Positions 8,279 to 28,912 of a stretch of DNA of 32,000 nt are shown here, piece after piece; positions within the stretch are counted from its first letter, which is position 1, and each line of letters starts with the position of its first letter. The stretch comes from Enterovirga sp. CN4-39. GTDB lineage: Bacteria; Pseudomonadota; Alphaproteobacteria; Rhizobiales; Beijerinckiaceae. Under the pieces are notes generated by a model that searched no databases, was not told where the DNA came from, and saw only the letters and a list, made by a program, of their open reading frames with translations. Location: contig NZ_JBMSEF010000001.1 in NCBI RefSeq assembly GCF_049446235.1, positions 252,855 through 284,854 of the forward strand. Direction: 5' to 3'. Made by a program: the position numbers and the translations under genes.

Positions 8279-9204
8279 GCGCCGGGCTGCGGGTCGCGCT
8301 CGCGGCCGAGAACGGCGAGTGGCATCGCGACCGCCTCGCGTCGGCCCTCCTGTCGCGCGGCGTCGAGCCGGTGCCGATCTCCCTCGCGGACGTCAGCGTC
8401 GTCACTGGGGATGGCGAGCCGCTTCGCGTGCCCGGCTTCGGGCGTGGCCTGCCACACGGATTGCTCATCCGCACCATCTCGGGCGGGACCTTCGAGGCGA
8501 CGACCCTTCGGCTCGGGATCCTGCACGCGCTGGTGGCGTCCAGGACGGTCGTCTGGAACAGCCCTGCCGCGATCGAGCGGTCGGTGGACAAATCGATGAC
8601 GAGCCTGCTCCTTGCGCGCGGCGGCGTGCCAACGCCGGAGACCTTCGTGCTGTCGACCTGGGAGGCGGCCTCCGACCTCGCCGCGAGCGAGGCGCGGCCA
8701 CAGACGCCGCTCGTGCTCAAGCCGCTCTTCGGGTCACAGGGCGAGGGCCTTCGCCTGATCACGCGGCCGGACGACCTGCCCGACAGGGACGAGGTCGCCG
8801 GCGTCTACTACCTGCAGCGCTACGTTTCCCGGAGGGACGGAAGCTGGCGCGACTACCGGGTCTTCGTCTGTGCTGGCCGCGCGATCGCGGGCATGATCCG
8901 CGAGGGTGACGGATGGATCACCAACCTCCGCCGCGGCGGCCGCCCAAGGCCCTGGGAGGTCCCGTCCGAGGCGGCGCGGCTGGCGGAGGCTGCCGCCGCG
9001 CTGACCAGCGTCGACTACACCGGCGTCGACCTCGTGGAAGACGGGGAGGGAGGCTACCTCGTGCTCGAGGTCAACTCGATGCCGGCCTGGTCGGGCTTGC
9101 AGCAGGTCACCCAGGTCGACATCGCGGGCGAGATCGCAGCCGGCTTCGTGCGCGCGGTCAGGGCTGCCCATGGTCCTGCACCCCGGCTCGCGGCGGCCAC
9201 GTGA
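8275..9204 (+). CDS. RimK-type ATP-grasp ligase (orfY-type; MptN-like glutamate ligase candidate)
   Basis: 309-aa ORF with a GTGA start/stop overlap with mch. RimK-like motifs [13 protein letters not shown] and [15 protein letters not shown]. Confidence 0.75.
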
Positions 9205-10037
9205 GTGGGCTCTCGCCCCGGTGCATCGCCGAGGCCTACGAGGCGGCCTGTCTCGCCGAACTCGCGGCGCTGAAGCCGGGCAACGTCCATGTCTTCGCTG
9301 CCGGCCACCGGATGCGCGTGGAGGATTTCCGTCGCAGCGCTACGGTGTCGTCGGGGCCGCTCTCTCGCGCTGGCAGCGGTGTCGGCGAGCGGGTTCTTGG
9401 GGCGGTCGAGGCTACGTCCGGTGCCGTCGGCCAGAACACCAATCTCGGCATTCTCCTGCTCTGCGCGCCGCTTGCGGCTGCCGCGGAACGGGGAGGGCAC
9501 CTCCGGACCGCCCTGGACGAGGTGCTTGCCGCCCTGGACATGGAGGATGCGAGGCGTGTCTACGCGGCGATCCGCCTCGCGAACCCTGCCGGGCTCGGGC
9601 GAACCGATCGGCACGACGTAGCGGAGGAGCCGGATATCGATCTTCGCGCCGCCATGGCGGCGGCGGCCGAGCGCGACAGGATCGCCCACGCCTACGTGAC
9701 CGGCTTCCAGGATCTGTTCGAAACCGGGCTCTCCGCCCTAACGGAGGCGCGCTCCCACGGGCTTGCGGAGCCCTGGCCGGCAACAGCCGTCCATTTCGCG
9801 TTCCTGGCAGGTTTTCGGGACAGCCACATCTGCAGGAAGCATGGCGCCGCTTGTGCGGAGGAGGTGCGGGCCGAAGCTGCCGCCCTCGGCCGGATCCTCT
9901 TCGTAAACGACGAATACGTTCGGGATCTGCTCGCGTTCGACATCTCGCTGAAATTGCGCGGCCTCAACCCGGGAACTACGGCCGACCTTACCGTGGCGAC
10001 GCTTTTTCTCGACAATCTGCTCCGCGAGAACGCCTGA
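9201..10037 (+). CDS. triphosphoribosyl-dephospho-CoA synthase (CitG/MdcB) family protein, orf7-type
   Basis: ORF 8913..10037 trimmed to the GTG at 9201, which makes a GTGA overlap with the upstream stop. Translation [30 protein letters not shown]…NTNLGILLL…[10 protein letters not shown] is typical of the CitG family. 278 aa. Confidence 0.75.
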
Positions 10038-10044
10038 ATGCGCC

Positions 10045-10073
10045 TTGTCCGGTCCGATACGCCCGCGCTAGTC
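10045..10073 (+). promoter_or_regulatory. candidate sigma70-type promoter for fae
   Basis: TTGTCC (10045-10050), a 17-nt spacer, then CTAGTC (10068-10073), in the 149-nt gap upstream of fae. Pattern match only. Confidence 0.2.
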
Positions 10074-10186
10074 TCCTGGTGCCATCTGGCCAACCGGTTC
10101 GGCTCGCCCGAACGCTGACAACAAGGATGGGTGTGCCCGGCCGTCTCGGTCGTGAGCGGCCGTCATCAGCAATGGGAGGACACCGC

Positions 10187-10705
10187 ATGGCGACGATCAG
10201 CAAAGTGATGGTGGGCGAGTCCCTCGTGGGCGAGGGGAACGAGGTCGCGCATATCGACCTTATCATCGGCCCGCGGGGCAGCCCCGCCGAGACGGCGTTC
10301 TGCAACAGCCTCACGAACAACAAGGACGGCTTCACGACCCTCCTCGCAGTGGTCGCGCCGAATCTGCCGTGCAAGCCCAACACCGTCATGTTCAACAAGG
10401 TCACGATCAAGGATGCGCGCCAGGCCGTGCAGATGTTCGGGCCGGCGCAGCATGCTGTTGCAATGGCGGTCAGCGAATGCGTCGCCGAAGGCCTAATTCC
10501 GGCCGCCGAGGCCGACGATCTCTTCGTCTGCGTCGGCGTGTTCATCCACTGGGAGGCGGCGGACGACGCCAAAATCCAGCAGTACAACTTCCAGGCCACG
10601 AAGGAGGCCTTGCAGAGGGCCATCCGGGGTGAGCCACGGGCGAGCGACGTGGTGGCGCGCTACAAGACGGCGACGCACCCCTTCGCGGCGAACAAGGCCG
10701 CCTAG
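10187..10705 (+). CDS. fae: formaldehyde-activating enzyme
   Basis: Only the last 172 codons of ORF 9170..10705 are used. ATG at 10187, preceded by the RBS GGGAGGA (about 10172-10178). [35 protein letters not shown]… is the classic Fae N-terminus. Confidence 0.95.
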
Positions 10706-15754: not shown

Positions 15755-16483
15755 TCAGGCCGCCTCCCGCCGTCCCGTCTCCGTGAGCCGCGCCGCGGCC
15801 TCACGAATGCGGCCCCCGTCGAGCGCCAGCCCACGGTTGCTGCTCGCGCAGAGGCCGCCGCGGAATCCGAGATAGCTCGGCCCGTGGCGAGCAAGAGCCG
15901 CGATGTCCGCGATCCGAAGCGAGCCCGCCAGCCCCGAGATCAGCCCGGCCTCCCGGCAGCCGGCCACGAAGCCCGCGAGCCGCTCGGGCGGCAGGAGGTC
16001 CGGCAGGCTCGTCCCGTCCTTAATCCGGGTGTCGATCATCGCTCCTGCGAAACCGGCACGGGCGACCGAGGGCAGGATGGACGGCTCCGGCCCGTCCTCC
16101 GCAAAGAAGACCGCGATGACTGGCACCCCGGCATGGGCCAGCGCTGGCCGCAGCATGTCCGGCTCGCTCCAGATCCCTGCCGGGAGCGCCACCTTCAGAA
16201 GGTCGGCGCCCGCGGGCGCGAGCGCGCCAAGGCTGGAGGCCAGTTCCGCAACCCCCCGCGGCTCTCCCGCGACTGCGCTGACGAGCGGGGAATTGGGGTT
16301 CGTCCGTACGTCCGCCGCTATGGCTGAGACAATGCCGGGCGGCAGCGCGCCTAGCGCGCCGCGATCGGGGTCTTTCGCGTCGACCAGATCGGCCCCGCAA
16401 TCAGCCGCGAGCACTGCCTCTGCCGGGTCGCGCACGCTGACGAGCAGGCGGGTGCTTTGGACTGGCGTCTCCGCTGGACTCAT
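15755..16483 (-). CDS. (5-formylfuran-3-yl)methyl phosphate synthase-like protein (MfnB/DUF556 family), furan-cofactor biosynthesis
   Basis: ORF 15755..16984 trimmed to the ATG at 16483 (MSPAETPVQSTRLLVSVRDPAEAVLAADCGADLVDAKDP…GFAGAMIDT…). 242 aa. ATGA overlap with the upstream secreted-protein gene. Confidence 0.75.
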   Translation of the reverse strand: MSPAETPVQSTRLLVSVRDPAEAVLAADCGADLVDAKDPDRGALGALPPGIVSAIAADVRTNPNSPLVSAVAGEPRGVAELASSLGALAPAGADLLKVALPAGIWSEPDMLRPALAHAGVPVIAVFFAEDGPEPSILPSVARAGFAGAMIDTRIKDGTSLPDLLPPERLAGFVAGCREAGLISGLAGSLRIADIAALARHGPSYLGFRGGLCASSNRGLALDGGRIREAAARLTETGRREAA

Positions 16484-17004
16484 GAGCGTTCCGGGAGGGG
16501 CTCGGCGAGCAGCCGGTTCTTCACCATCCAGCGGATGCCGCGAAGCCAAGTCTCGTCCGTGTTGCCCCGTATGTCGACCTGCGCGCCGCGCACGATCTTT
16601 CCGTCGGCGATATCCGTAACGGTGAGGACGAAGCTCAGGATGAGGTTCGAGGTCTTCTGCACGTAGCCGGAGACGACGAGTTCCGCGCCGAGGGACTTGC
16701 CGATCTCCTCGATGCAGCCGTTGCACTTGAAGACGGGGCTCTTGTCCTGGATTGCGGTGGCCTGCGGCGCGATGTCGACGGGCGTGATCTGTCCGGACTC
16801 GGCCAGCAGGCGCCGCAGTTCGGTGCTGGCGAGCCCGAGCCGACGAGCCTGCTCCGCTTCCAGCCCGCGGTCGCCCGAAGGCTGGCTCATGTCCAGCAGT
16901 TCGATCTCTAGGATCGCCGTTCGAGCCGGGCGCGCCATCGCTGCCGATGCTAGGAGCAGCGATACCAAAACCAGGACAGGCCACACATTGGCCTCCCGCA
17001 ACAT
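16480..17004 (-). CDS. secreted CxxC protein of unknown function (possibly DUF3280-like)
   Basis: ORF 16480..17139 trimmed to the ATG at 17004. Signal peptide MLREANVWPVLVLVSLLLASAAMA. Mature part carries KCNGCIEE and the beta-rich segment VVSGYVQKTSNLILSFVLTVTDIADGKIV. First gene of the minus-strand operon. The family name is a recollection, not verified. Confidence 0.6.
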   Translation of the reverse strand: MLREANVWPVLVLVSLLLASAAMARPARTAILEIELLDMSQPSGDRGLEAEQARRLGLASTELRRLLAESGQITPVDIAPQATAIQDKSPVFKCNGCIEEIGKSLGAELVVSGYVQKTSNLILSFVLTVTDIADGKIVRGAQVDIRGNTDETWLRGIRWMVKNRLLAEPLPERS

Positions 17005-17120
17005 AATACTAATAAATCGATCACACGCCATTTCGCTCTGCACAAGCGCGCGAGTTCTTAGTTTTCTCTCATCGATAATCTGTTGTGCAAGATCACTTTG
17101 CCTGGGTAACCTGCGACACC
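17005..17120. promoter_or_regulatory. divergent AT-rich control region (cofactor operon to the left, lut-like operon to the right)
   Basis: 116-nt gap that is clearly AT-richer than the flanking DNA. Two ATCGAT palindromes (17016-17021, 17071-17076). GATAAT (17074-17079) is -10-like. Confidence 0.5.
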
Positions 17121-18335
17121 ATGACGACAGCGAGGCCATTTTCAGGTTTGCTTATGTCGCGGAGCAGGCGGATCGCGATCTGCGCTGCTCTCGTCTGCCT
17201 TGCCGGGCGTGCCGTCGCGGCGGACCCGGTAGAATTTCGCATCGGCATTATCAGCCGGGAGATCCCGCCGCCGGCGGCCTCGGACATCGAGGCTCGGCCG
17301 GAGGATGACGGCATCGCGGGCGGGCGGCTCGCGATCCGCGACAACAACTCGACGGGGGCCTTCACTCGACAAAGCTACAAGGCCGAGGAGGTGATCCTGG
17401 AGGAGGGGCAGAGCGCGGGCGAGGCCGCGAAGGCCCTCGTTTCGGGCGGGACCCCCTTCATCGTCGCGGCGCTGCCGGCGGACGATCTTCTGGCCGTGGC
17501 GGATGCCCTGAAGGACACGCCGGCGGTCGTGTTCAATGCCGCGGCAGGCGAGGACCGGCTGCGCGGGCCGGATTGCCGCGCGAACATCTTCCACGTCGCG
17601 CCGAGCACCGCGATGCTGACCGACGGGCTCGCGCAGTTCCTGTCCCACATGCGCTGGCGCAAGCTCTTCCTGATGGTTGGACCGAACGAGGCCGACCGGC
17701 TCTACGCCGAGGCGGTCAAGCGCTCGGCGCGCAAGTTCGGGCTGCAGGTCACGGCCGAGAGGCCCTGGGATCTCGGGCCGCTCGCGCGGGCGAAGGCCGA
17801 CAGCCCGACTACGGCCGAGGCACTCGTCTTCACCCGGGGGGGCGATTACGACATCGCGGTCGTCGCCGACGAGGCCGGCGATTTCGGCGACTACGTTCCC
17901 TTTCGCACCGTCGACCCGCGGCCGGTCGGCGGCACGCAGGGGCTGATCGCCACGACGTGGCATCCGACTCTCGAGGCCTGGGGTGCGACCCAGGCCCAGA
18001 ACCGTTTCCGCCGCCTTGCCGGCCGTCTCATGCGGCCGCTCGACTACCAGGTCTGGGCGGCGGTGCGCTCGGTCGGAGAGGCGGGCACGCAGACGAAGAG
18101 CGCCGATCCGCGCCTCGTCGCGGCATTCCTGAGAAGCCCGGATTTCAGCCTGCCGGGCCACAAGGGCGTGGGCCTTTCCTTCCGCACCTGGGACCAGCAA
18201 CTCCGCCAGCCCATCCTGATCGTGCAGCCCAAGGCCCTGGTGACGGTCGCGCCGGAGAAGGGCTTCCTCCACCAGCGGACACCGCTCGACTCCCTTGGCC
18301 TGGATCAACCGGAGAGCCCATGCAGACTCGGCTGA
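17121..18335 (+). CDS. lutA: periplasmic type-1 (LivK-like) ABC substrate-binding protein, PQQ-dehydrogenase/lanthanide-associated system
   Basis: ORF 17085..18335; start at ATG 17121 or ATG 17154 (MSRSRRIAICAALVCLAGRAVA signal peptide). Periplasmic-binding-protein pattern (FRIGIIS…, IVAALPADDLLAV…, LFLMVGPNEADR). The symbol is assigned by position in the lutA-H-like order. Confidence 0.7.
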   Translation: MTTARPFSGLLMSRSRRIAICAALVCLAGRAVAADPVEFRIGIISREIPPPAASDIEARPEDDGIAGGRLAIRDNNSTGAFTRQSYKAEEVILEEGQSAGEAAKALVSGGTPFIVAALPADDLLAVADALKDTPAVVFNAAAGEDRLRGPDCRANIFHVAPSTAMLTDGLAQFLSHMRWRKLFLMVGPNEADRLYAEAVKRSARKFGLQVTAERPWDLGPLARAKADSPTTAEALVFTRGGDYDIAVVADEAGDFGDYVPFRTVDPRPVGGTQGLIATTWHPTLEAWGATQAQNRFRRLAGRLMRPLDYQVWAAVRSVGEAGTQTKSADPRLVAAFLRSPDFSLPGHKGVGLSFRTWDQQLRQPILIVQPKALVTVAPEKGFLHQRTPLDSLGLDQPESPCRLG

Positions 18336-19336
18336 CCCCTCCCGCGCGGCCGCTGGTCAGCCGCCCCGGCACCTTCCCGGCTTTCATCGCTCTGGCGGTC
18401 GGTCTGGGATTTGCGGCCGAAGCCGCCGCCTTCACGATCTATGTGAGCAACGAGAAGGACAACACGGTCACGGTGCTCGATTCCGGGACGCTGGAGATGA
18501 AGGCGACCTGGAAGGTTGGCCGCCGGCCACGCGGCGTCACGCTGAGCAACGACGGCTCCCTGCTCTTCGTCTGCGCGAGCGACGACAACCGCGTCGACGT
18601 CGTCGACACCGCGACCGGCAAGGTCCTGCGCAGCCTACGGTCAGGGCCGGATCCGGAGCAGTTCATCCTGCATCCGTCCGGCAACCCGCTCTACATCGCC
18701 AACGAGGACGACAGCCAGGTCACGGTGCTCGACGTCGAGAAGAACCGCGTCATCGCCGAGGTGCCCGTCGGGGTGGAGCCGGAGGGGATGGGGATCAGCC
18801 CGGACGGCAAGATCCTGGTGAACACCTCCGAAACCACCAACATGGCGCATTTCATCGACACCGACAGCCTCAAGGTGGTCGAAAACGTCTTGGTCGACGC
18901 CCGGCCGCGCGTCGCCGAGTTCACGGCCGACGGAAAGAAGCTCTGGGTCTCGGCCGAGATCGGCGGCACGGTTGCGATCATCGACGTCGCGACCCGGCAG
19001 GTCGAGAAGAAGGTCGGCTTCAAGATCCCTGGCATCCCGGACGATGCCATCCAGCCGGTCGGCATCCGTATCACGCGGGACGGCTCACGGGCCTTTGTGG
19101 CGCTCGGGCCCGCCAACCGCGTCGCCGTACTGGATGGGAAGACGCACGAGGTCCTGAGCTACCTCCCTGTCGGCCAGCGCGTCTGGCAGCTCGCCTTCTC
19201 GCCGGACGAGAAGCTCCTGTTCACTACCAACGGCACCTCGAACGACATCTCCGTAATCGATGTCCCGAGCGCCAAGGTCGTCAGGAGCGTCAAAGTCGGG
19301 CGGCTGCCATGGGGCGTCGTCGTGTCACCGAAATGA
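18320..19336 (+). CDS. lutB: secreted YVTN-repeat beta-propeller protein
   Basis: Last 338 codons of ORF 17573..19336; the ATG at 18320 overlaps the lutA end by 16 nt. N-terminal hydrophobic signal. Repeated motifs: YVSNEKDNTVTVLD, LFVCASDDNRVDVVD, LYIANEDDSQVTVLD, LFTTNGTSNDISVID. Confidence 0.75.
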   Translation: MQTRLTPPARPLVSRPGTFPAFIALAVGLGFAAEAAAFTIYVSNEKDNTVTVLDSGTLEMKATWKVGRRPRGVTLSNDGSLLFVCASDDNRVDVVDTATGKVLRSLRSGPDPEQFILHPSGNPLYIANEDDSQVTVLDVEKNRVIAEVPVGVEPEGMGISPDGKILVNTSETTNMAHFIDTDSLKVVENVLVDARPRVAEFTADGKKLWVSAEIGGTVAIIDVATRQVEKKVGFKIPGIPDDAIQPVGIRITRDGSRAFVALGPANRVAVLDGKTHEVLSYLPVGQRVWQLAFSPDEKLLFTTNGTSNDISVIDVPSAKVVRSVKVGRLPWGVVVSPK

Positions 19337-19346
19337 GGAGGGGGCG

Positions 19347-19775
19347 ATGAAGAGGCTTCTGCCGGGGATGCTGGTCGGGGCGGTCATGGCGGCGATGCCC
19401 GTTCAGGCGCTCGACCTCATGAAGGGCCGGACAGATCTTCCGGAACTGGCCCTGGGCGACGAGGACGGGAACGATTTTGCGCTTCCCGTGCGCGACATCG
19501 AGATGGAGGGCGGGAAATCCTACCGCCTGAAGATCACTGCCAAGGGCCAGAAGGAATACAAGTTCCTCGCGCCCGACTTCCTCCGGAACATCTGGATCAA
19601 TCAGGTCGTCATCAACCGCCTGGAGGTGCACATGGCCGGCGCCCCCTACGCCTTCGAGTTCGACGACCAGGGAACCATTGCCGTGGACTTCGTCGCGGTC
19701 CGGCCGGGCGAGTACCGCTGGTGGATCCAGGGCCTGGAAGGCCGCGGCATGACCGGCAAGCTGGTTATCAAGTAG
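19347..19775 (+). CDS. lutC: small secreted protein, possibly a cupredoxin-like fold without copper ligands
   Basis: ATG at 19347 preceded by GAGGAGGGGG. Signal peptide MKRLLPGMLVGAVMAAMPVQA. 142 aa. The symbol is purely positional. Confidence 0.55.
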   Translation: MKRLLPGMLVGAVMAAMPVQALDLMKGRTDLPELALGDEDGNDFALPVRDIEMEGGKSYRLKITAKGQKEYKFLAPDFLRNIWINQVVINRLEVHMAGAPYAFEFDDQGTIAVDFVAVRPGEYRWWIQGLEGRGMTGKLVIK

Positions 19776-19785
19776 GACTGCGGCG

Positions 19786-20025
19786 ATGAGGCGTCTTCTT
19801 GTGCCCCTTGCGATGATGCTGGGATCCGGCCTCGCGCAGGCCGATGACCAGAGCGAGTGCGTCGCGGGCATCGCGATGCTTCAGGCCGAGGTGCCTAAGG
19901 CAACGGGCGCGGTCCGGACCAAGGTCGAGCGCGAATTGCGGGTCGCCCAGCGCGAGCAGGGCGAGGGCGAGTTCGACGAATGCATGGACGCGATCCGGGC
20001 TGCGCGCGCGGCACTCGGGAAGTGA
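19786..20025 (+). CDS. lutD: small secreted two-cysteine helical protein
   Basis: 79-aa ORF. Signal peptide MRRLLVPLAMMLGSGLAQA. The stop overlaps the ATPase GTG start (GTGA). The symbol is purely positional. Confidence 0.5.
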   Translation: MRRLLVPLAMMLGSGLAQADDQSECVAGIAMLQAEVPKATGAVRTKVERELRVAQREQGEGEFDECMDAIRAARAALGK

Positions 20026-20762
20026 CCGGGGTTCCGGCTCTTCTCGTCCGTAACCTCGGTCATCGCTTCGGGAGCCGGGCCGCCCTCTCGGAAGTGTCGC
20101 TCACGGTGCCGGAGGGGGGCTTCGTCGCACTGCTGGGCCCGAACGGGGCGGGGAAGACGACGCTCTTTTCCGTCGCGACTGGCCTCTACGCAAATCAGAG
20201 CGGCGCCGTGTCCGTCTTCGGTCACGACATCCGGACCTCGCCCGCGGGGGCGCTCGCGCTCACGGGCGTCGTCTTCCAGGCCCGCACGCTCGACGGCGAC
20301 CTGACCATTCGCCAGAACCTCGTCTACCACGCGGCCCTGCACGGGATCCGCGGCCGGGCCGCGATGCCGCGCATCATCGAACTCCTCGGCCGCGTGGGCA
20401 TGCGCGAGCGCCTGGACGAGAGGGTCAGAACGCTGTCGGGCGGGCAGGCCCGCCGGGTCGAGATCGCCCGCGCCCTCGTGCACGCCCCGCGGCTGCTCCT
20501 CCTGGACGAGCCGACGGTCGGGCTCGACCTCGCCTCCCGCTCCGACGTCGTGCACATCGTCCGCGACCTCGTCGTGGACGAGAGGCTCTCGGTTCTGTGG
20601 GCGACGCATATCTTCGACGAGGTCCATCCCGGCGACGAGGTCGTCGTCCTCCATGCCGGGAGGGTGATCGCGACCGGGCTAGCGGCCGACCTCGCGCGGC
20701 CTGGTGGCTCCCTTGAAGCCTCGTTCCGGCAGATGACTGCCGTTCCACTGAGGGCGGCATGA
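20022..20762 (+). CDS. lutE: ABC transporter ATP-binding protein
   Basis: ORF 19980..20762 trimmed to the GTG at 20022. Walker A GPNGAGKTT, signature LSGGQ, Walker B LLLLDEP, H-loop WATHIFDE. Confidence 0.85.
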   Translation: MTGVPALLVRNLGHRFGSRAALSEVSLTVPEGGFVALLGPNGAGKTTLFSVATGLYANQSGAVSVFGHDIRTSPAGALALTGVVFQARTLDGDLTIRQNLVYHAALHGIRGRAAMPRIIELLGRVGMRERLDERVRTLSGGQARRVEIARALVHAPRLLLLDEPTVGLDLASRSDVVHIVRDLVVDERLSVLWATHIFDEVHPGDEVVVLHAGRVIATGLAADLARPGGSLEASFRQMTAVPLRAA

Positions 20763-21607
20763 GCGCCGTCGCGCTGCGGAGCCGGGTGGACGGTGCGGGC
20801 TATCTCGTCTGCTTCGTTGGGATCGTGCGTCGGGAGCTCCTGCGGTTCCTCAACCAGACGGGACGCTTCTTCTCTGCACTCGTGCGGCCGCTGGTGTGGC
20901 TGTTCATCTTCGCCGCCGGATTCCGGAGCGTGCTCGGCCTCTCCATCACGCCGCCCTACGAGACCTACGTGCTCTACGAGGTCTATGTCGTGCCCGGGCT
21001 CGCGGCCATGATCCAGCTCTTCGCCGGCATGCAATCCTCCCTGTCCATGGTCTATGACCGTGAGGTCGGGTCGATGCGGCTGCTTCTGACGAGCCCCTTC
21101 CCACGCTGGTCGCTTCTGCTGGCGAAGCTCGCGGCCGGCGTCGTCGTCTCGCTCGTCCAGGTCTACGTGTTCATCGCGATCGCGCAGCTCTGGGGCACGG
21201 ACCTGCCGCCCCTGGGCCTTCTTACGGCCCTGCCGGCCTTCATCCTGGTCGGGCTGATGCTCGGCGCTATGGGGCTCTTCCTCTCCTCGCTCGTGCGGCA
21301 GCTCGAGAACTTCGCCAGCGTGATGAACTTCGTCATCTTCCCGCTGTTCTTCGCGTCCTCCGCGCTCTACCCCCTGTGGCGGATCCGGGAAGCGAGCGAG
21401 ATCCTCTACCGCATCTGCCTCGCCAATCCCTTCAACCATGCGGTCGAACTGATCCGCTTCGCACTCTACATGCGGCTCGAGCCGGTGGCGCTCGCCGTCG
21501 TAGCCGGAACGACCGCGCTCTTCTTTCTGCTCGCGGTCGCGGCTTACGATCCCGGTCGCGGCGTGATGGGTCGGCGCGGCGGCGGCCCGCAGGAGGCGCC
21601 GACATGA
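20759..21607 (+). CDS. lutF: ABC-2-type transporter permease
   Basis: 282-aa ORF with an ATGA overlap with the ATPase gene. About six hydrophobic segments. Typical ABC-2 features (…MVYDREVGSMRLLLTSP…). Confidence 0.8.
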   Translation: MSAVALRSRVDGAGYLVCFVGIVRRELLRFLNQTGRFFSALVRPLVWLFIFAAGFRSVLGLSITPPYETYVLYEVYVVPGLAAMIQLFAGMQSSLSMVYDREVGSMRLLLTSPFPRWSLLLAKLAAGVVVSLVQVYVFIAIAQLWGTDLPPLGLLTALPAFILVGLMLGAMGLFLSSLVRQLENFASVMNFVIFPLFFASSALYPLWRIREASEILYRICLANPFNHAVELIRFALYMRLEPVALAVVAGTTALFFLLAVAAYDPGRGVMGRRGGGPQEAPT

Positions 21608-22209
21608 GGCCCTACATCCTCGCGGTTTGCTCCATCCTGGTCGCGCCGGCGGCCGCATGGGCGCAGCCGAAGCCGGATCCCGACTGGCCCTGCGTGCAGC
21701 GCCGCGTGGCGACGATCGCGCCGGCCGCAATCTGGTCGGGACCCGACCTGGAGAAGGCAGGCGCATGGGGAAGTGACCCTCCCGTTGCAGCGCTCGCCCA
21801 ACGGCTGGCGTCGCGGCGCACGACGCTGGAGGAGGCGGACACGTTGCTGGAAGGCTTCGCGAGGGAAGCGGGCCCTGACCGGAAGGAAAAACTGACCCGG
21901 CTCTTCTCCGGGATCCTCGCGCTCACCAACGCGGAGAGGAGCCGGGTGCTCGAGGGGATCACCCGCTATGCGCGTGGCCAGGAGCGCTTGGCAGAACGGA
22001 TCCGGGATGAGGCTGACCGGATCAGCGCAGCGAAGGATTCGCCACAGGCGGAGGCGCCCAAGGACATTGCCGCACTCGAGACGAGCTTCGCCTGGGACAA
22101 GCGCATCTTCGAGGAGCGCAGCCAGGCCCTCAACTATGTCTGTGAAGTTCCGACGCTCATCGAGGAGCGACTGGGTGAGATCGCGCGGCGGATAGAGGCG
22201 CGATTGTGA
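21604..22209 (+). CDS. lutG: secreted helical protein of unknown function
   Basis: Last 201 codons of ORF 21376..22209; ATGA overlap with the permease stop. Signal peptide MRPYILAVCSILVAPAAAWA. Two Cys residues (DWPCVQ, NYVCEVP). The symbol is purely positional. Confidence 0.5.
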   Translation: MRPYILAVCSILVAPAAAWAQPKPDPDWPCVQRRVATIAPAAIWSGPDLEKAGAWGSDPPVAALAQRLASRRTTLEEADTLLEGFAREAGPDRKEKLTRLFSGILALTNAERSRVLEGITRYARGQERLAERIRDEADRISAAKDSPQAEAPKDIAALETSFAWDKRIFEERSQALNYVCEVPTLIEERLGEIARRIEARL

Positions 22210-22300
22210 AGCTTAATGGCAGACTATTCTAAGCTAATCATAATGTCATAATCGGTTTCTTCGGTATATATCTGTTGTATGTAGCTCAATCGGCGGCATC
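22210..22300 (+). promoter_or_regulatory. AT-rich control region upstream of the TonB-dependent receptor
   Basis: The most AT-rich stretch in the window. Tandem TCATAATG/TCATAATC (22238-22253). AAGCT(T)AAT direct repeat (22209-22217, 22231-22238). TATATA (22265-22270) is -10-like, with ATGTCA 16 nt upstream. Confidence 0.5.
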
Positions 22301-24745
22301 ATGCGTCTGGCGAGGGCGAAACGCCCTCGTGGCGGGGCGGGCACGATGCGGGGCATGTGGTTTGCGCTGTCGGCGGGTGTCGCCAGCCTCTCGGCCGCGG
22401 AGGCCATAGCTCAGAGCGCGACAGCGCTTCCGGAGATCGAGGTAATCGCGACGACGCCCGTCGCGAGTTCGGGTTCGACGCGCGGCATCGCGCGCGACAT
22501 GATTCCGGGCACCGTCGAAACCGTCACGGCCCGTGAGTTCGAGCGGCAGCGTTCATTCAACCTCCTGAATACGCTGCAGGCCCGCACGCCGGGGGTGAGC
22601 CTCAACGACGTCCAGGGCAGCGAGCAGTTCCAGGACCTGCGCTATCGCGGCTTCGCAGCCTCGCCGCTGCCCGGCACGCCCCAGGGGATTGCCGTCTACC
22701 AGAACGGCGTGCGCATCAACGAGGCGTTCGGCGACAGCGTGAACTGGGACTTCATCCCGCCTGTCGCGATCAACCGCCTCGACCTCTTCAGCAGCAACCC
22801 CATCTTCGGTCTCAACGCTCTCGGCGGCGCCGTGAACATCGAGATGAAGAACGGCTTCACCTGGCAGGGCTTCGAGACACAGATCCAGGGGGGCTCCTTC
22901 GGCCGGTTCGGCGGCTCGATGCAATACGGGGCGGCCATCGGCGATTGGGGCCTCTACATCGCGGGTGACGGAATGCGCAACGACGGGTGGCGCTTCCAAT
23001 CGCCATCCGAGATCAAGCGCTTCTACGGCGATCTCGGCTATCGGGCGGAGTCCTCCGAGTTCCACCTGATCGGCGCTGGCGCCTGGAACTCGTTCGGCGT
23101 GATCGGGCCGACACCCGTCGATCTTCTGCGCCTCAACGAGCGCTCGATCTACACGTGGCCGCAAACGACGCGGCACGAGATGAGTCTCGTCGCCCTCAAC
23201 GGCCGCGTGGATGTAAGCCCCACCTGGACGATCCAGGGCACGGCCTATGTCCGGACATTCGACCAGCGGCACGTCGACGGAAACGACGCCGAGTTCGAAC
23301 GGTGCAGCAACCAGTCCTCGTTCGGCGGCCGCCTTTGCCTGGAGGACGACGGCTTCGGCGTCCCGCCAGGCGGAAGGACGCGCGCCTTTCGAGACCAGTT
23401 CGCAGTGGTGGGCCCGAACGGTGCAAGCCTTCCCTTCACGCCCGGCGCCACCTACGGCACCGTCGATCGGACACGAACCTCGGCGACCAGCTATGGCGGC
23501 TCGCTCCAGGCGACAAGCACGGAGACGCTGCTCGGCCACAAGAACACCTTCATCCTTGGCGGGAGCATCGACGGCGCGGATTACAGCTTCCGCTCCGGAA
23601 GCGAACTGGGCGTCATCTATCCAAACCTGTTCGTCGGCCCCAGCGCTGCCGTTCCGGGCACCGGGACCGGCCCGATCCGGTCCTTCGGTAACATCGGCTA
23701 TGCGCCGGTCGACCTCCGCGGCACCAACACCTATTTCGGCCTTTTCGCGACCGACACGTTCGAGGTGACGGATCGGCTTGCCGCGACCTTCGCCGTCCGG
23801 CTGAACTCGATCCAGATCGATACGCGCGACGCGAGCGGCGTCGCGCCGGAATTGAACGCGAAGAACAGCTTCACGCGTGCCAATCCGGCCTTCGGGCTGA
23901 CCTACAAGCTCACGCCGGAGGTCTCCGTCTATGGTGGGTATGCGGAAGCGAACCGCGCTCCGACCCCGCTCGAGCTGAATTGCGCCGACCGCAATCGGCC
24001 CTGTCTCCTGGAGAACGCGCTCGTCGCCGACCCACCCCTCCAGCAGGTGGTGTCGCGCACCTTCGAGGCAGGCCTGCGCTCGACGGTGACGGACTTCCAT
24101 GGCGGAACGCTCCGCTTCAAGGCTGGAGCATTCCGCACCGCCGTCGAGGACGACATCATCGCACTCGCGAGCGTCATCCAGGGGCGCGGCTTCTATGCAA
24201 ATGTCCCGTCGACCCTCCGGCAGGGAGCAGAGCTGTCGGCGGAATATGCCGGCGAGCAATGGCAGCTCTACGCCAATTACAGCTTCATCGACGCGACCTT
24301 CCGGTTCACCGGCGCGATTGCCTCTCCGAACAACCCGGCCGCCGACGATGACGGCAATATCCTCGTGCGGCCCGGCCACCACATTCCGCTGATCCCACGC
24401 CACCAGGTCAAGGCCGGGTTGGAATACGCGTTCACGCCAGCGTGGCGGTTCGGGATCGAACTCGCCGCCTTCTCGAGCCAGCGCTTCGCGGGGGATGAGG
24501 CGAACCTCGCCCGCGTTCTCCCGGCCTATTGGTTCGCGAACCTCCGCACCACCTATCAGGTCACGCCGAACATCCAGGTCTTCGGCGTGGTGAACAACCT
24601 GTTCGACCGCCGCTACGCGAGCTACGGCACCTTCTTCGAGAGAAGCGCGATCCCGAACGCGGCCGGTGTTGTCTTCAACGACCCGCGGACCATCACGCTC
24701 GCCCAGCCTCTCTCAGTGTATGGGGGCGTGAAGATCACCTGGTGA
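22301..24745 (+). CDS. lutH: TonB-dependent outer-membrane receptor
   Basis: 814-aa ORF. The likely signal peptide MRGMWFALSAGVASLSAAEAIA-Q suggests the ATG at 22346 as an alternative start. Plug region (EIEVIATTP…GVSLNDVQG…RGF) and a C-terminal beta-barrel ending in W (YGGVKITW). The symbol is positional. Confidence 0.85.
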   Translation: MRLARAKRPRGGAGTMRGMWFALSAGVASLSAAEAIAQSATALPEIEVIATTPVASSGSTRGIARDMIPGTVETVTAREFERQRSFNLLNTLQARTPGVSLNDVQGSEQFQDLRYRGFAASPLPGTPQGIAVYQNGVRINEAFGDSVNWDFIPPVAINRLDLFSSNPIFGLNALGGAVNIEMKNGFTWQGFETQIQGGSFGRFGGSMQYGAAIGDWGLYIAGDGMRNDGWRFQSPSEIKRFYGDLGYRAESSEFHLIGAGAWNSFGVIGPTPVDLLRLNERSIYTWPQTTRHEMSLVALNGRVDVSPTWTIQGTAYVRTFDQRHVDGNDAEFERCSNQSSFGGRLCLEDDGFGVPPGGRTRAFRDQFAVVGPNGASLPFTPGATYGTVDRTRTSATSYGGSLQATSTETLLGHKNTFILGGSIDGADYSFRSGSELGVIYPNLFVGPSAAVPGTGTGPIRSFGNIGYAPVDLRGTNTYFGLFATDTFEVTDRLAATFAVRLNSIQIDTRDASGVAPELNAKNSFTRANPAFGLTYKLTPEVSVYGGYAEANRAPTPLELNCADRNRPCLLENALVADPPLQQVVSRTFEAGLRSTVTDFHGGTLRFKAGAFRTAVEDDIIALASVIQGRGFYANVPSTLRQGAELSAEYAGEQWQLYANYSFIDATFRFTGAIASPNNPAADDDGNILVRPGHHIPLIPRHQVKAGLEYAFTPAWRFGIELAAFSSQRFAGDEANLARVLPAYWFANLRTTYQVTPNIQVFGVVNNLFDRRYASYGTFFERSAIPNAAGVVFNDPRTITLAQPLSVYGGVKITW

Positions 24746-24750
24746 GCGGC

Positions 24751-24780
24751 GGGGAGGCCCGGCGGGGCAGGGCGCTCCCC
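24751..24780. terminator. GC-rich hairpin between the convergent receptor and GMC oxidoreductase genes
   Basis: GGGGAGGCCC (24751-24760) pairs with GGGCGCTCCCC (24770-24780): 10 bp, one bulge, 9-nt loop. No U-tract. Confidence 0.3.
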
Positions 24781-24805
24781 ATGTCGGTGCGCCGGAGTCC
24801 TTCCT

Positions 24806-26419
24806 TCACGCCCGCACGGTCTTCCCATCTTCCAGGATCATGGCGGCGGCTTTTTCGGCGATCATGATGGTGGGGGAGTTGGTGTTGCCGGAGGTGATGC
24901 GGGGCATGGCGGAGGCGTCGGCGACGCGCAGTCCGCCGACCCCGCGCACGCGCAGGCGCTCGTCGAGGACCGCCATCGGGTTGTTGTCGGGGCCCATGGC
25001 GGCCGAGCCGGCCGGGTGGAAGATGGTGGTGCCGAGGCGGCCGGCCGCGACCAGCATGTCCTCGTCGCTCGCGACCCCCGGGCCCGGCAGGTGCTCGACC
25101 GGGCTGTAGCGGGCGAGCGCGGGCTGGCTCACGATTCTGCGGGCGAGCTTGAGCGAATCGACGGCGACCCGGCGGTCCTCGTCCGTGGTCAGGTAGTTCG
25201 GCTGGATCAGAGGCTTGCCGTCCGGGCCGCGATGCACGCTGCCGCGGCTCGAGGGTCGCAGGTTGCAGACGCTCGCCGTGAAGGCCCCGAACGGGTGCAG
25301 GCCCTCGCCCCACTTGTCGAGCGAGAGCGGCTGGAAGTGGAATTCCAGGTTCGCGGTCGCGTAGTCCGGCGAGGATTTCGCAAAGGCGCCGACCTGGGAG
25401 GGCGCCATGGTCAGCGGCCCTGTGCGGAGGAGGGCGTATTCGACCCCCATCCAGGCGCGGCGGAGGAGGTTGGCATAGTCGGTGTTGAGCGAGCGCACGC
25501 CCGTGACCTTGTAGACCGGGCGGATCTGGAGGTGGTCCTGCAGATTCTCGCCGACCCCGGGCAGGTGCCGGACGGTGTCGATGCCGTGGCCCGACAGCCG
25601 CTCGCCATCGCCGATGCCGGAGGCCTCGAGCAGGACCGGCGAGCCCACCGCGCCGGCCGAGAGCACCACCTCGCCGGCCACCGCGGCCCGGTATTGCTCG
25701 CCGCCGCGCGAGAAGATCACGGCGCTGGCGCGGCCCTCCGTGAACTCGACCCGGTCCACATGCACGCCGGTCTCGAGGCGGAGGTTGGGCCGGTTCAGGA
25801 CGGGCTTGAGGAAGCCCCGGAACGCGCTCCAGCGCCGGCCCCGCCTCTGGTTCACCTGGAAATAGGACGAGCCCTCGTTGTCGCCGGTGTTGAAGTCCGG
25901 GATCTTGGGGATGCCGGCTTCGGCGGCGGCCTCCCGGATCGCGTCCAGGATGTCCCAGCGCAGGCGCGGGTGCTCGACGCGCCACTCGCCGCCCGACCGG
26001 TGGAACTCGTTCGGCGGCGCGATGTGGTCCTCGTGCTTGAGGAAGAAGGGCAGGACGTCGTCCCAGCCCCAGCCGGCGAGCCCGAGCTGGCGCCAGCCGT
26101 CGTAATCGGCCGCCTGGCCGCGCATGTAGATCATGGCGTTGATGGCGGAGGAGCCGCCGACCACCTTGCCGCGCGGATAGGCGATGGTGCGCCCGCCGAG
26201 CCCCGCCTCCGGGGCGGTGGCGAACATCCAGTCGGCGCGCGGATTGCCGATGGCGAACAGGTAGCCGACCGGGATGTGGAACCAGACCCAGTTGTCCCGC
26301 CCGCCGGCCTCCAGCACCAGCACTCGGTTCCGCCCATCCGCCGAGAGCCGGTTGGCCAGCACGCACCCCGCCGAGCCCGCCCCGACGATCACGTAGTCGT
26401 ATGTGCCAAATTCCTGCAT
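24806..26419 (-). CDS. GMC-family FAD-dependent oxidoreductase (choline/alcohol dehydrogenase-like)
   Basis: ORF 24806..26449 trimmed to the ATG at 26419 (MQEFGTYDYVIVGAGSAGCVLANRLS…VLVLEAGG…). C-terminal GMC signature region (…HPAGSAAMG…VADASAMPRITSGNTN…). Confidence 0.9.
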   Translation of the reverse strand: MQEFGTYDYVIVGAGSAGCVLANRLSADGRNRVLVLEAGGRDNWVWFHIPVGYLFAIGNPRADWMFATAPEAGLGGRTIAYPRGKVVGGSSAINAMIYMRGQAADYDGWRQLGLAGWGWDDVLPFFLKHEDHIAPPNEFHRSGGEWRVEHPRLRWDILDAIREAAAEAGIPKIPDFNTGDNEGSSYFQVNQRRGRRWSAFRGFLKPVLNRPNLRLETGVHVDRVEFTEGRASAVIFSRGGEQYRAAVAGEVVLSAGAVGSPVLLEASGIGDGERLSGHGIDTVRHLPGVGENLQDHLQIRPVYKVTGVRSLNTDYANLLRRAWMGVEYALLRTGPLTMAPSQVGAFAKSSPDYATANLEFHFQPLSLDKWGEGLHPFGAFTASVCNLRPSSRGSVHRGPDGKPLIQPNYLTTDEDRRVAVDSLKLARRIVSQPALARYSPVEHLPGPGVASDEDMLVAAGRLGTTIFHPAGSAAMGPDNNPMAVLDERLRVRGVGGLRVADASAMPRITSGNTNSPTIMIAEKAAAMILEDGKTVRA

Positions 26420-26551
26420 GAAAGACCCATATCCGAGTTGAACGGCCAAGGGCGAGGGATCCCGTCTCCGTCCGCTCGAAAATCGGGGGCGCTCGCGGAA
26501 TGCCGCCGGACAGGTTAGCTAGCCGCCGTCACTCCCAAAGGCGGCGCGAAC

Positions 26552-27322
26552 ATGAGCTACACTATAGATTTGTCCGGTCGGACGGCCCTCGTGACCGGGG
26601 CCTCGAGCGGCCTTGGCCGGCACTTCGCGACGGTGCTCGCACAGGCTGGCGCACAGGTCGTTCTGGCGGCTCGGCGGATCGATGCTCTTTCCTCCCTCCA
26701 GACCGAGATTCGCGACGCAGGCGGGTCGGCGGAGCTTGTCGGACTGGATGTGACCGATCCGAGGGCCGTGGCGACAGCCGTTGCCGAGGCTCAACGGATC
26801 GGGGCCGGGCAACTCGACATCGTTGTGAACAATGCCGGCGTCGCCCTGACAAAGCCCTTCCTGGAACTAACGCCGGAAGACTGGGACGGCGTCCTCGACA
26901 CGAATCTCCGCGGCGCCTTCCTGGTCGGTCAGGCTGCGGCACGCCAGATGAAGGAAAGCGGCCGCGGCGGGTCGATCATCAACATCGCCTCCATCCTGGG
27001 GCTCAGGGTCGCCGGCCAGGTCTCGGCCTATGCCACGTCCAAGGCCGCGCTCGTGCAGCTTACGCGTGCGATGGCGCTTGAGCTCGCCCGTTACGGGATT
27101 CGCGTGAATGCCCTCTGCCCGGGCTACGTGGAGACCGATCTGAACCGCGATTTCTTTGCCACCGACGTGGGCAAGGACCTGATCCGCCGCGTGCCCCAGC
27201 GCCGACTCGGCCAGATGTCGGACCTCGACGGCGCTCTGCTTCTGCTCGCGGGCGATGCCGGGCGATCGATCACGGGTGCTGACATCCCTGTCGATGGCGG
27301 CCACCTGGTCTCGTCCCTCTGA
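26552..27322 (+). CDS. short-chain dehydrogenase/reductase (SDR) family oxidoreductase
   Basis: 256-aa ORF. Cofactor motif TGASSGLG, NNAG, and catalytic S…YxxxK (SAYATSKAAL). Confidence 0.9.
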   Translation: MSYTIDLSGRTALVTGASSGLGRHFATVLAQAGAQVVLAARRIDALSSLQTEIRDAGGSAELVGLDVTDPRAVATAVAEAQRIGAGQLDIVVNNAGVALTKPFLELTPEDWDGVLDTNLRGAFLVGQAAARQMKESGRGGSIINIASILGLRVAGQVSAYATSKAALVQLTRAMALELARYGIRVNALCPGYVETDLNRDFFATDVGKDLIRRVPQRRLGQMSDLDGALLLLAGDAGRSITGADIPVDGGHLVSSL

Positions 27323-27466: not shown

Positions 27467-27543
27467 GCGGGCGTAGCTCAGTTGGTTAGAGTGCCGGCCT
27501 GTCACGCCGGAGGTCGCGGGTTCGAGCCCCGTCGCCCGCGCCA
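27467..27543 (+). tRNA. tRNA-Asp (anticodon GUC)
   Basis: Folded by hand. Acceptor GCGGGCG/CGCCCGC, D arm GCTC-AGTTGGTTA-GAGT, anticodon stem CCGGC/GCCGG with loop CTGTCAC, variable loop AGGTC, T arm GCGGG-TTCGAGC-CCCGT, discriminator G, encoded CCA. 77 nt. Confidence 0.95.
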
Positions 27544-28474: not shown

Positions 28475-28912
28475 ATGCCGACCTTCAGCAAGCACTTCGT
28501 CCAATTCTCGAACTTCGTGGCGCATGCCAGCGGAAAGCAGCTGACCTTCGCCCTCGCAGTTTTCCTCACAGCGGTCTGGGGCGTTACCGGCCCCTTGTTC
28601 CACTACTCGGATGCCTGGCAGCTGGTGATCAACACCGGCACGACGATCGTCACGTTCCTGATGGTGTTCCTCATCCAGAACACCCAGAATCGGGACGGCG
28701 CCGCCATCCAGACCAAGCTCGACGAGCTCATCCGGGCGAGCGCGGCTCAGAACGTCTACATCGGCATCGAGCATCTTACCGACGAGGAGCTGGATGAGCT
28801 GCGCGCCAAGTGCGAGGCGAGGGCGCGCTCTGAGCGCTCAGGCGACGAGGCGGCGCGTAGGGCGCAGGAGAAGGCAGCGGCGGCTGCGGACCGCGCCGCA
28901 GGGATTGGCTGA
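28475..28912 (+). CDS. low-affinity iron permease family (Fet4-like small membrane) protein
   Basis: 145-aa ORF. FALAVFLTAVWGVTGPLFHYSDAWQLVINTGTTIVTFLMVFLIQNTQNRD…IQTKLDELIRA is the hallmark core of this family as I remember it. Confidence 0.8.
   Translation: MPTFSKHFVQFSNFVAHASGKQLTFALAVFLTAVWGVTGPLFHYSDAWQLVINTGTTIVTFLMVFLIQNTQNRDGAAIQTKLDELIRASAAQNVYIGIEHLTDEELDELRAKCEARARSERSGDEAARRAQEKAAAAADRAAGIG

Follow-up and report, generated by a model that had tools for sequence, protein, structure and literature searches.

Organization of the gene cluster

A stretch of 32,000 nucleotides (nt) from Enterovirga sp. CN4-39 (contig NZ_JBMSEF010000001.1, positions 252,855 to 284,854; hereafter the window, in whose coordinates all positions are given) carries eight plus-strand genes that very probably form a lut-type (lanthanide utilisation and transport) cluster. 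The observations that bear on this assignment are the homology of all eight proteins, the order and context of their genes, the metal site of the small protein LanD, the modelled folds of LutC and LutG, and a sequence box shared by promoter-proximal regions of the locus. An initial annotation of the same DNA, made from its letters alone, had described seven coupled genes followed by a receptor gene. Both the open reading frame (ORF) table and the sequence bear out this arrangement, including the overlap at 18320-18335 and the GTGA, ATGA and ATGA overlaps that follow it. The genes are listed below, with lengths in amino acids (aa).

17121-18335, plus strand: lutA, LivK-like periplasmic substrate-binding protein of 404 aa; the alternative start at 17154 would give 393 aa
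18320-19336, plus strand: lutB, secreted YVTN beta-propeller of 338 aa; 16-nt overlap with the 3' end of lutA
19347-19775, plus strand: lutC, secreted protein of 142 aa; 10-nt gap after lutB
19786-20025, plus strand: lutD (lanD), secreted protein of 79 aa, about 60 aa when mature; 10-nt gap after lutC
20022-20762, plus strand: lutE, ATP-binding cassette (ABC) ATPase of 246 aa from GTG 20022; GTGA overlap at 20022-20025; alternative start at ATG 19980
20759-21607, plus strand: lutF, ABC-2 type permease of 282 aa; ATGA overlap with lutE
21604-22209, plus strand: lutG, secreted protein of 201 aa; ATGA overlap with lutF
22346-24745, plus strand: receptor gene at the lutH position, TonB-dependent receptor of 799 aa; the longest ORF, 22301-24745, has 814 codons

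The G+C content at third codon positions is 0.82-0.89 in the checked ORFs, which is the coding signature of this genome. Because such an excess is expected of real genes, a chance set of ORFs is excluded. The starts of lutA (17121 or 17154) and lutE (GTG 20022 or ATG 19980) are ambiguous, and the gene callers applied to the contigs of relatives picked differing starts for these two genes.

The core quartet matches curated families

The initial annotation had equated the binding protein, propeller, ATPase and permease with the pedA1A2BC quartet of Pseudomonas putida, and had proposed hidden Markov model (HMM) searches with the families associated with pyrroloquinoline quinone (PQQ) dehydrogenases. 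These searches were run, and all four proteins exceed the curated NCBIfam cut-offs. Specifically, LutA scores 457.6 bits against TIGR03863, the PQQ-dehydrogenase-associated ABC binding protein (cut-off 413.6 bits), and LutB scores 518 bits against TIGR03866, the PQQ-catabolism-associated YVTN beta-propeller (cut-off 287.3). LutE reaches 319.7 bits against TIGR03864 (cut-off 302.25) and LutF reaches 382.6 bits against TIGR03861, the PedC family (cut-off 241.35). Since the same four families, including the one named after PedC, describe the quartet of P. putida KT2440, the core of the cluster is indeed of the ped type as measured by these curated HMMs.

Outside the quartet the two loci differ. 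The ped locus has no lutC, lanD or lutG gene and no adjacent TonB-dependent receptor gene, and it adjoins pedE and pedH, whereas our ORF survey of the 32-kb window agrees with the earlier statement that no PQQ dehydrogenase is encoded there. The literature likewise agrees that the lut and ped loci are genetically tied to lanthanide uptake (PMC7391723, PMC6839425). In P. putida, pedA1A2BC is required for growth that depends on lanthanum (La), and the four proteins are more than 43-50% identical to their M. extorquens counterparts (PMC6839425).

More general features of the proteins are consistent with these family assignments. The Pfam matches are Peripla_BP_6 for LutA, the YNCE and Lactonase propeller families for LutB, ABC_tran for LutE and ABC2_membrane for LutF. 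LutE carries a Walker A motif (GPNGAGKT), the signature LSGG, a Walker B motif (LLLLDE) and an H-loop, and the hydropathy profile of LutF has about six hydrophobic spans. N-terminal signal peptides are present on LutA, LutB, LutC, LutD and LutG. The nearest solved proteins to LutB are the YVTN propellers 1l0q and 5c2v and Escherichia coli YncE (3vgz, 54.8 bits), and the best of its matches among 5.8 billion proteins has 75% identity, with no exact record.

The pairing of an ABC-2 permease with a binding protein was flagged as a puzzle at the outset, and the puzzle is genuine: a sequence search of the PDB yields no solved relative of LutA and only a marginal match for LutF. It characterises the family in general, and the present locus is not peculiar in this respect.

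LutD as a landiscernin with an intact metal site

The propeller and the three small secreted proteins of the cluster had been listed in the initial annotation as having no assigned mechanism. Although LutC, LutD and LutG all lack Pfam and NCBIfam matches, this description does not hold for LutD. Its alignment with M. extorquens LanD (landiscernin; PDB 9c8w, E value 6.4e-13) spans the entire mature chain, and the motif R56-E57-Q-G-E60-G-E62-F-D-E65-C66 (REQGEGEFDEC) is identical to the AM1 residues R69/E70/E73/E75/E78/C79. The Cys25-Cys66 pair is kept, and the predicted signal-peptide cleavage site (AQA/DD) matches the mature N-terminus of the crystal construct. Judged from its sequence, therefore, the 79-aa LutD is LanD, a predicted three-helix lanthanide-binding protein whose metal site is intact. 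Because LutD is LanD, one of three proteins previously thought to be without a mechanism would have a defined biochemical role.

The solved LanD is a disulfide-stabilised three-helix bundle whose surface lanthanide site comprises a bidentate Glu70 and monodentate Glu73 and Glu75, with Arg69 and Glu78 conserved in the second sphere (PMC11551332). The role proposed for LanD is to hand disfavoured lanthanides (Nd, Sm) over to lanmodulin and so keep them off the import path, and its orthologues are reported alongside LanM in nearly all genomes. In the window no EF-hand DPDxDG motif of the lanmodulin type occurs in any frame, and neither lanM nor lutI follows the receptor gene. Separately, the residues that form the salt bridge of the AM1 apo-dimer (D39/R47) correspond to A27/E35 in the window protein. 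The interface of the metal-free dimer may therefore differ here while the metal site is identical.

Modelled folds of the orphan proteins LutC and LutG

LutC has 35 homologues in a word-index search, the closest being 98% identical (metagenome) and 81% identical (a metagenome-assembled genome, MAG, labelled Enterovirga sp.). An exhaustive profile search expands this family to 337 clusters at 50% identity (E value of at most 0.001). A PDB sequence search gives no match to LutC, but its AlphaFold model (pLDDT, the predicted confidence score, of 86) is a cupredoxin-like beta-sandwich. Foldseek aligns this model with cupredoxin domains in the PDB at E values near 2e-6, probability 1.00 and TM (structural similarity) scores of 0.49-0.59, and the matched proteins include copper nitrite reductases, plastocyanins, Cupredoxin_1 (4hcf), AcoP and N2O reductase. 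The mature protein has no Cys, and the type-1 His-Cys-His-Met set of copper ligands is absent. Because the model matches cupredoxins while Cys and the ligand set are lacking, LutC is predicted to be a cupredoxin fold with no copper site. Only G56, Y59, E93 and G121 are at least 90% conserved in the wider family. The L-E-F-D/E motif at 103-106, with its acidic residues E104 and D106, is fairly conserved, and H95 is kept among close relatives only and not across the wider family. These conserved carboxylates would suit a hard cation.

The 435 homologues of LutG are annotated as hypothetical without exception, and C30 and C180 are invariant. The LutG model (pLDDT 89) is a hairpin or coiled coil dominated by a 70-residue helix (75-145). 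A PDB sequence search yields nothing, and Foldseek gives only generic coiled-coil matches at E values above 0.08. LutG thus models as a long helical hairpin that has no recognised relative in the PDB.

Conservation of order and context

Species-representative genomes were scanned with a LanD alignment, which identified 25 loci (24 from Methylobacterium or Methylorubrum and one from an Azospirillum MAG), of which 23, all from Methylobacterium or Methylorubrum, are complete. The set does not contain M. extorquens itself or M. aquaticum 22A, and close Methylorubrum species serve as proxies. Those standing in for AM1 are M. aminovorans, M. populi, M. zatmanii, M. rhodesianum and M. thiocyanatum, whose LanD proteins are 87-92% identical to the AM1 crystal sequence. 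When the eight window proteins were used as tblastn queries, the order A-B-C-D-E-F-G was recovered in all 23 complete loci, among them those of species with a LanD 87-93% identical to the AM1 protein. The identities of the window proteins to those encoded in the loci are:

LutA: 64-70%
LutB: 70-77%
LutC: 53-71%
LutD: 48-58%
LutE: 62-69%
LutF: 75-78%
LutG: 55-62%

On the opposite strand 5' of lutA, every one of the 23 loci carries the DUF447, DHPS-like, kinase, MfnB-like and DUF3280 genes, and the DUF3280 gene has the same position and orientation in five further contigs, L026-L030. Because lutA-G order and these upstream genes are shared by 23 of 23 loci, the earlier claim that the cluster has the M. 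extorquens gene order beside genes for tetrahydromethanopterin (H4MPT)-linked reactions is verified.

In M. extorquens AM1, lutA-H, lanM and lutI correspond to META1p1778-1787 (PMC7391723). The window resembles the AM1 and PA1 loci in its eight-gene order, orientation and style of overlap (the LanD gene overlaps the ATPase gene), in its adjacency to H4MPT and methanofuran genes, in the separate promoter region of its receptor gene, and in its identical LanD metal site. It differs in that GMC oxidoreductase, short-chain dehydrogenase/reductase (SDR), tRNA-Asp and nuo genes lie downstream in place of lanM-lutI, and in that its receptor is only 38-40% identical to the LutH clade of Methylorubrum. 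LutA-G are 48-78% identical to their counterparts in the surveyed loci. The proposed gene-for-gene correspondence with AM1 therefore stands for lutA-G order and receptor position. AM1 has in addition lanM and lutI, which the window lacks. Among the loci surveyed, lanM follows lutH only in those of the Methylorubrum type, and it directly follows lutG in two others. Beijerinckiaceae bacterium RH AL1 shares the lutABEFG core with the window. Its lutH, lanD and lanM genes are unlinked, whereas lutC, lanD and the receptor gene are all linked to the core here. The RH AL1 arrangement reveals the modularity of both the accessory genes and the receptor.

The TonB-dependent receptor and its start codon

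The receptor has Pfam Plug (51 bits) and TonB_dep_Rec_b-barrel (152 bits; a 22-strand barrel domain) matches, a TonB box (LPEIEVIAT) and a C-terminal Trp (...KITW). It reaches no NCBIfam equivalog, and its top matches, to generic subfamilies of siderophore and haem receptors, all fall short of the cut-offs. Identity with PqqU, its third-best NCBIfam match, was rejected at 98.7 bits against a cut-off of 1200. A FecA-type signalling receptor was also rejected: there is no STN domain, the plug of the long ORF begins at residue 68, and the neighbourhood contains neither sigma nor anti-sigma genes. In E. coli, yncE adjoins yncD/pqqU, so that the pairing of a propeller with a receptor, here of a YncE-like LutB with a receptor that resembles PqqU far below the cut-off, recurs around PQQ systems. 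This may well be a coincidence.

Receptors encoded 3' of lutG in 16 of the 23 loci are homologous to the window receptor over its full length. They form two clades that are 37-41% identical to one another. Clade I (71-97% identity within the clade) comprises Methylorubrum together with M. bullatum, M. marchantiae and Leaf91, and clade II (69-88%) comprises M. hispanicum, M. trifolii, M. nigriterrae, WL119 and a MAG. The window protein is 38-40% identical to clade I, the clade of Methylorubrum LutH, and 50-54% identical to clade II, of which it would be an outlying member. The initial annotation had placed it as the last gene of a lutABCDEFGH series, which fits its position and full-length homology. 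It is not a close orthologue of LutH, however, and groups with clade II. LutH is mostly confined to Methylorubrum, and the related TonB_Ln is more widespread. M. aquaticum 22A needs TonB_Ln in order to grow in a La-dependent manner, and La represses the TonB_Ln promoter (PMC9301485). We infer that clade II is the TonB_Ln clade. Through this equation the window receptor would be related to TonB_Ln of M. aquaticum 22A (Maq22A_c14845), which belongs to a clade related to and distinct from LutH.

Two ENA assemblies contain metagenome contigs that match the window at 95.3-95.4% identity over 8-10 kb, and these close relatives help to place the start of the receptor gene. Contigs L031 and L032 from the same assemblies cover lutF, lutG and the beginning of the receptor region, and L031 extends through the complete receptor gene to the GMC gene, arranged as in the window. 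Both have a 2-nt insertion between the equivalents of ATG 22301 and ATG 22346, such that the first ATG is out of frame, and their receptor genes are called from the second ATG (799 aa). Against these relatives the preceding spacer, 22210-22300, has 1 mismatch in 91 nt. Translation from ATG 22346 also yields the more canonical signal peptide, MRGMWFALSAGVASLSAAEAIA. Because the insertion in contigs about 95% identical breaks the frame from ATG 22301, the receptor probably starts at 22346, which would extend the spacer to 136 nt and make 22301-22345 part of the leader. The 91-nt AT-rich gap reported earlier is thus correct as an AT-rich spacer to the longest ORF (22210-22300), and the true gap is probably 136 nt.

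Other relatives have no receptor at this position. In L029/L030, which represent a relative 77% identical in DNA, lutA-G are present and LysE and TctC genes occupy the place of the receptor gene. The DNA of this relative is homologous to the window only as far as the lutG stop (22209/22210), give or take a few bases. Seven of the 23 Methylobacterium loci also have no receptor 3' of lutG. The G+C content over 22001-25000 is 0.635-0.666, slightly under that of neighbouring DNA.

A conserved box upstream of lutA and the receptor gene

The exact nonamer ATCTGTTGT occurs twice in the window against 0.02 expected, a figure that is indicative only, like the other statistics on this box, as the box was found post hoc. 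One copy precedes lutA and the other precedes the receptor gene, and a related copy lies before the divergent DUF3280 gene. The elements and the regions that contain them are:

17078-17086, plus strand: box ATCTGTTGT, ending 34 nt 5' of the lutA ATG; unchanged in contigs L026 and L027, which are 95% identical to the window
22270-22278, plus strand: box ATCTGTTGT, 22 nt 5' of ATG 22301 and 67 nt 5' of ATG 22346
17006 down to 16998, minus strand: box TTATGTTGC, just 5' of the ribosome-binding site of the DUF3280 gene
16987-17120: divergent DUF3280/lutA intergenic region, 47% G+C, with two box copies
22210-22345, plus strand: AT-rich spacer that probably serves the receptor gene as its 5' leader, with a sigma-70-like match at 22216-22244, CTAAG at 22229 and the box at 22270-22278
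16480-16986, minus strand: DUF3280 gene, encoding a secreted protein of 168 aa with a GTG start and signal peptide MWPVLVLVSLLLASAAMA; PF11684 at 149 bits

Across 1.13 Mb of loci plus the window, counting both strands, the core [AT]TnTGTTG[CT] occurs 22 times, and 13 of these occurrences lie before receptor genes. A composite element, AAG-N3-nTGnn-N12-16-TGTTGC-N8-CACG, is found 5' of the receptor gene in 14 of 16 loci and in both clades, with one more copy between lutH and lanM in L008. Methylobacterium lutA promoters carry a related TTGAG-N13-ATG(T/C)TGTTA element. In Methylobacterium and Methylorubrum loci (L001, L002, L004, L010, L025 and others), this element lies only about 12-15 nt 5' of the lutA ATG, a proximity that suggests a very short or absent leader. 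A reading of the box as a sigma-70 -35/-10 pair was also tried, but neither the spacing nor the hexamers are a clean fit, and the box is left as a promoter-proximal element.

The box is probably a shared promoter or operator. It offers independent, if indicative, support for co-regulation of the receptor gene with lutA, in agreement with experimental reports that lutH and TonB_Ln have separate promoters repressed by La. The DUF3280 protein may belong functionally with lut instead of with the H4MPT genes.

Flanking genes

The DUF3280 gene is the last of the H4MPT/methanofuran block and is divergent from lutA. The presence of an H4MPT island beside the cluster, as first annotated, is confirmed by the fhc, mtdB, mch, fae and methanofuran genes identified upstream. 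Specifically, the island includes fhcD, fhcA, fhcB, the beta-RFAP synthase gene, mtdB, an ATP-grasp gene, mch, an MptN-like ligase gene and fae. It further includes a HisA/F-like gene, a gene for an H4MPT-linked hydantoinase-like protein, a polyketide-cyclase-like gene, and genes for DUF447, DHPS-like, MfnE-like kinase and MfnB-like synthase proteins. Longest ORFs overshoot genes in this high-G+C DNA: fae corresponds to the C-terminal 160 codons of a 511-codon ORF (9170-10705, plus strand), and the MfnB-like gene corresponds to 242 codons of a 409-codon ORF (15755-16984, minus strand) that overlaps the DUF3280 gene.

Downstream, the receptor gene is followed by a convergent GMC oxidoreductase gene (24806-26449), an SDR gene (26552-27322) and tRNA-Asp (27467-27543), and then by a gene of the low-affinity iron-permease family (28475-28912) and nuoA, nuoB and nuoD. 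The spacer at 22210-22300 has a G+C content of 38%, against 68% for the whole window. An Rfam scan returned only the tRNA-Asp, with no riboswitch or known RNA in the AT-rich gaps.

Proposed function and rival explanations

The function of the locus can be approached through its genetically characterised relatives. In M. extorquens AM1, loss of lutE or lutF abolishes growth on methanol with La, and loss of lutA, lutB or lutG slows it. Mutants in lutA, lutE and lutF build up La in the periplasm and lose the cytoplasmic deposits. In addition, lutH mutants take up no La, and lutH is needed when mxaF is absent (PMC7391723). A cytosolic sensor indicates that light lanthanides reach the cytoplasm (cited in PMC6839425 and PMC11551332), and lanthanides are thought to enter cells as a metallophore complex.

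By analogy with M. extorquens AM1 and PA1, M. aquaticum 22A and P. putida, the products of the present locus would be specific for lanthanides and would act in the direction of import. A lanthanide-chelator complex would cross the outer membrane through the receptor (22346-24745), whose gene would be under its own promoter in the AT-rich spacer. In the periplasm, handling and sorting would fall to LutA, LutB (translationally coupled to LutA), LutC, LanD and LutG. Among these, LanD would offer four carboxylate oxygens to a lanthanide bound at its surface and would hand less-favoured lanthanides to lanmodulin. The LutE2F2 ABC-2 transporter would then move light lanthanides into the cytoplasm, where they would enable the cell to express and use XoxF-type PQQ methanol dehydrogenases from genes located elsewhere in the genome.

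Several points weigh against this proposal. The organism is known here from the window and metagenome contigs alone, and the genetics comes from the four strains named above. The window has no xoxF, PQQ or lanM genes, and its receptor has only 38-40% identity to the genetically characterised LutH. The receptor is a modular, variable add-on, because L029/L030, the nearest fully sampled relative, has lutA-G without it. Finally, the ABC-2 fold is typical of exporters, and no structure or transport assay of LutAEF exists.

Copper is loaded into N2O reductase (NosZ) by NosDFY, in which an ABC-2 permease acts with partners in the periplasm. As a mechanistic analogy only, this system resembles Lut in joining an ABC ATPase and an ABC-2 permease to several periplasmic partners. 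NosZ combines a beta-propeller with a cupredoxin fold, the same two folds that are present in LutB and LutC. On this reading LutEF would be a mechanotransducer or exporter that uses ATP to power a step in the periplasm, such as chelator release or hand-over, with lanthanides entering the cytoplasm by another route. Consistent with this idea, LutF is of the ABC-2 class and its next-best families (DrrB, NodJ, KpsM and GldF) are exporters or machines, and soluble periplasmic proteins make up five of the eight gene products. The propeller LutB, of the seven-bladed type, partially matches lactonase-type NosZ, and the cupredoxin domain of N2O reductase is among the matches of LutC. The missing LutAEF structure and transport assay leave room for such a role. 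However, Lut differs from NosDFY in having a LivK-type binding protein, a hallmark of importers, and in the net import indicated by genetics. LutF has no specific affinity to NosY models, nor do the systems have a specific sequence relationship. Because the AM1 mutants accumulate periplasmic La and lose their cytoplasmic deposits, a NosDFY-like role is disfavoured, and the sensing of light lanthanides in the cytosol also speaks against it. We consider this explanation quite unlikely.

Two other explanations concern substrate. The receptor might be an ordinary iron-siderophore receptor that merely adjoins lutA-G and has no lanthanide role. Its best NCBIfam matches, its distance from LutH, its absence after lutG in L029/L030 and in seven Methylobacterium loci, and its slightly lower G+C content would all fit this view. 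Nevertheless, it appears very unlikely given that two related clades, homologous to the window receptor over their full length, occupy this exact position and orientation in 16 loci. The same upstream box precedes receptor genes of both clades and of the window, as well as the window lutA, and both LutH and TonB_Ln are La-repressed and needed for La-dependent growth, the latter bearing on the window through the proposed identity of clade II. A broader doubt is that the whole system is a generic transporter associated with PQQ alcohol dehydrogenases whose substrate is an alcohol, PQQ or another small molecule, as 'alcohol ABC transporter' names imply. The TIGRFAM names predate lanthanide biology and describe only the association with PQQ dehydrogenases. 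Lanthanides are indicated by genetic, imaging and metal-depletion data from three organisms, and the operon itself encodes a LanD whose metal site is intact. This generic alternative is thus highly improbable, and lanthanide uptake by a lut-type cluster is the explanation that we favour.

A more elaborate scheme would join several of the present observations. The periplasmic half of the system might be a metal-sorting machine in which LutC binds a lanthanide or its chelate through carboxylates (E93, E104/D106) that replace the copper ligands, and in which LutB, LutC, LanD and LutG dock on LutA/LutF. ATP hydrolysis by the ABC-2 transporter would drive chelator release and lanthanide selection in a NosDFY-like manner, besides or instead of translocation, and the box would mark a lanthanide-responsive regulon that includes the DUF3280 protein. 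Taken as a whole, this scheme is speculative and unlikely to be correct.

Implications

The lut system itself has been described since 2019-2020, and the Enterovirga locus, which the analysis places in a lineage of the Methylobacteriaceae, adds a complete and fairly divergent cluster to it. New here are the identification of LutD as LanD, the fold predictions for LutC and LutG, the placing of the receptor in a clade, the revised start of its gene and the conserved box. None of the leads offered by LutC, LutG and the box overturns current understanding.

Comparison of the window with its relatives separates the fixed parts of the system from the modular ones. The H4MPT/DUF3280 neighbourhood, lutA-G and the LanD metal site are fixed, whereas the receptor clade, lanM/lutI and the downstream context are modular. 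For work on lanthanide trafficking and bio-separation, the copper-less cupredoxin-like fold predicted for LutC, the orphan hairpin modelled for LutG, and the box shared by lutA and the receptor gene provide leads.

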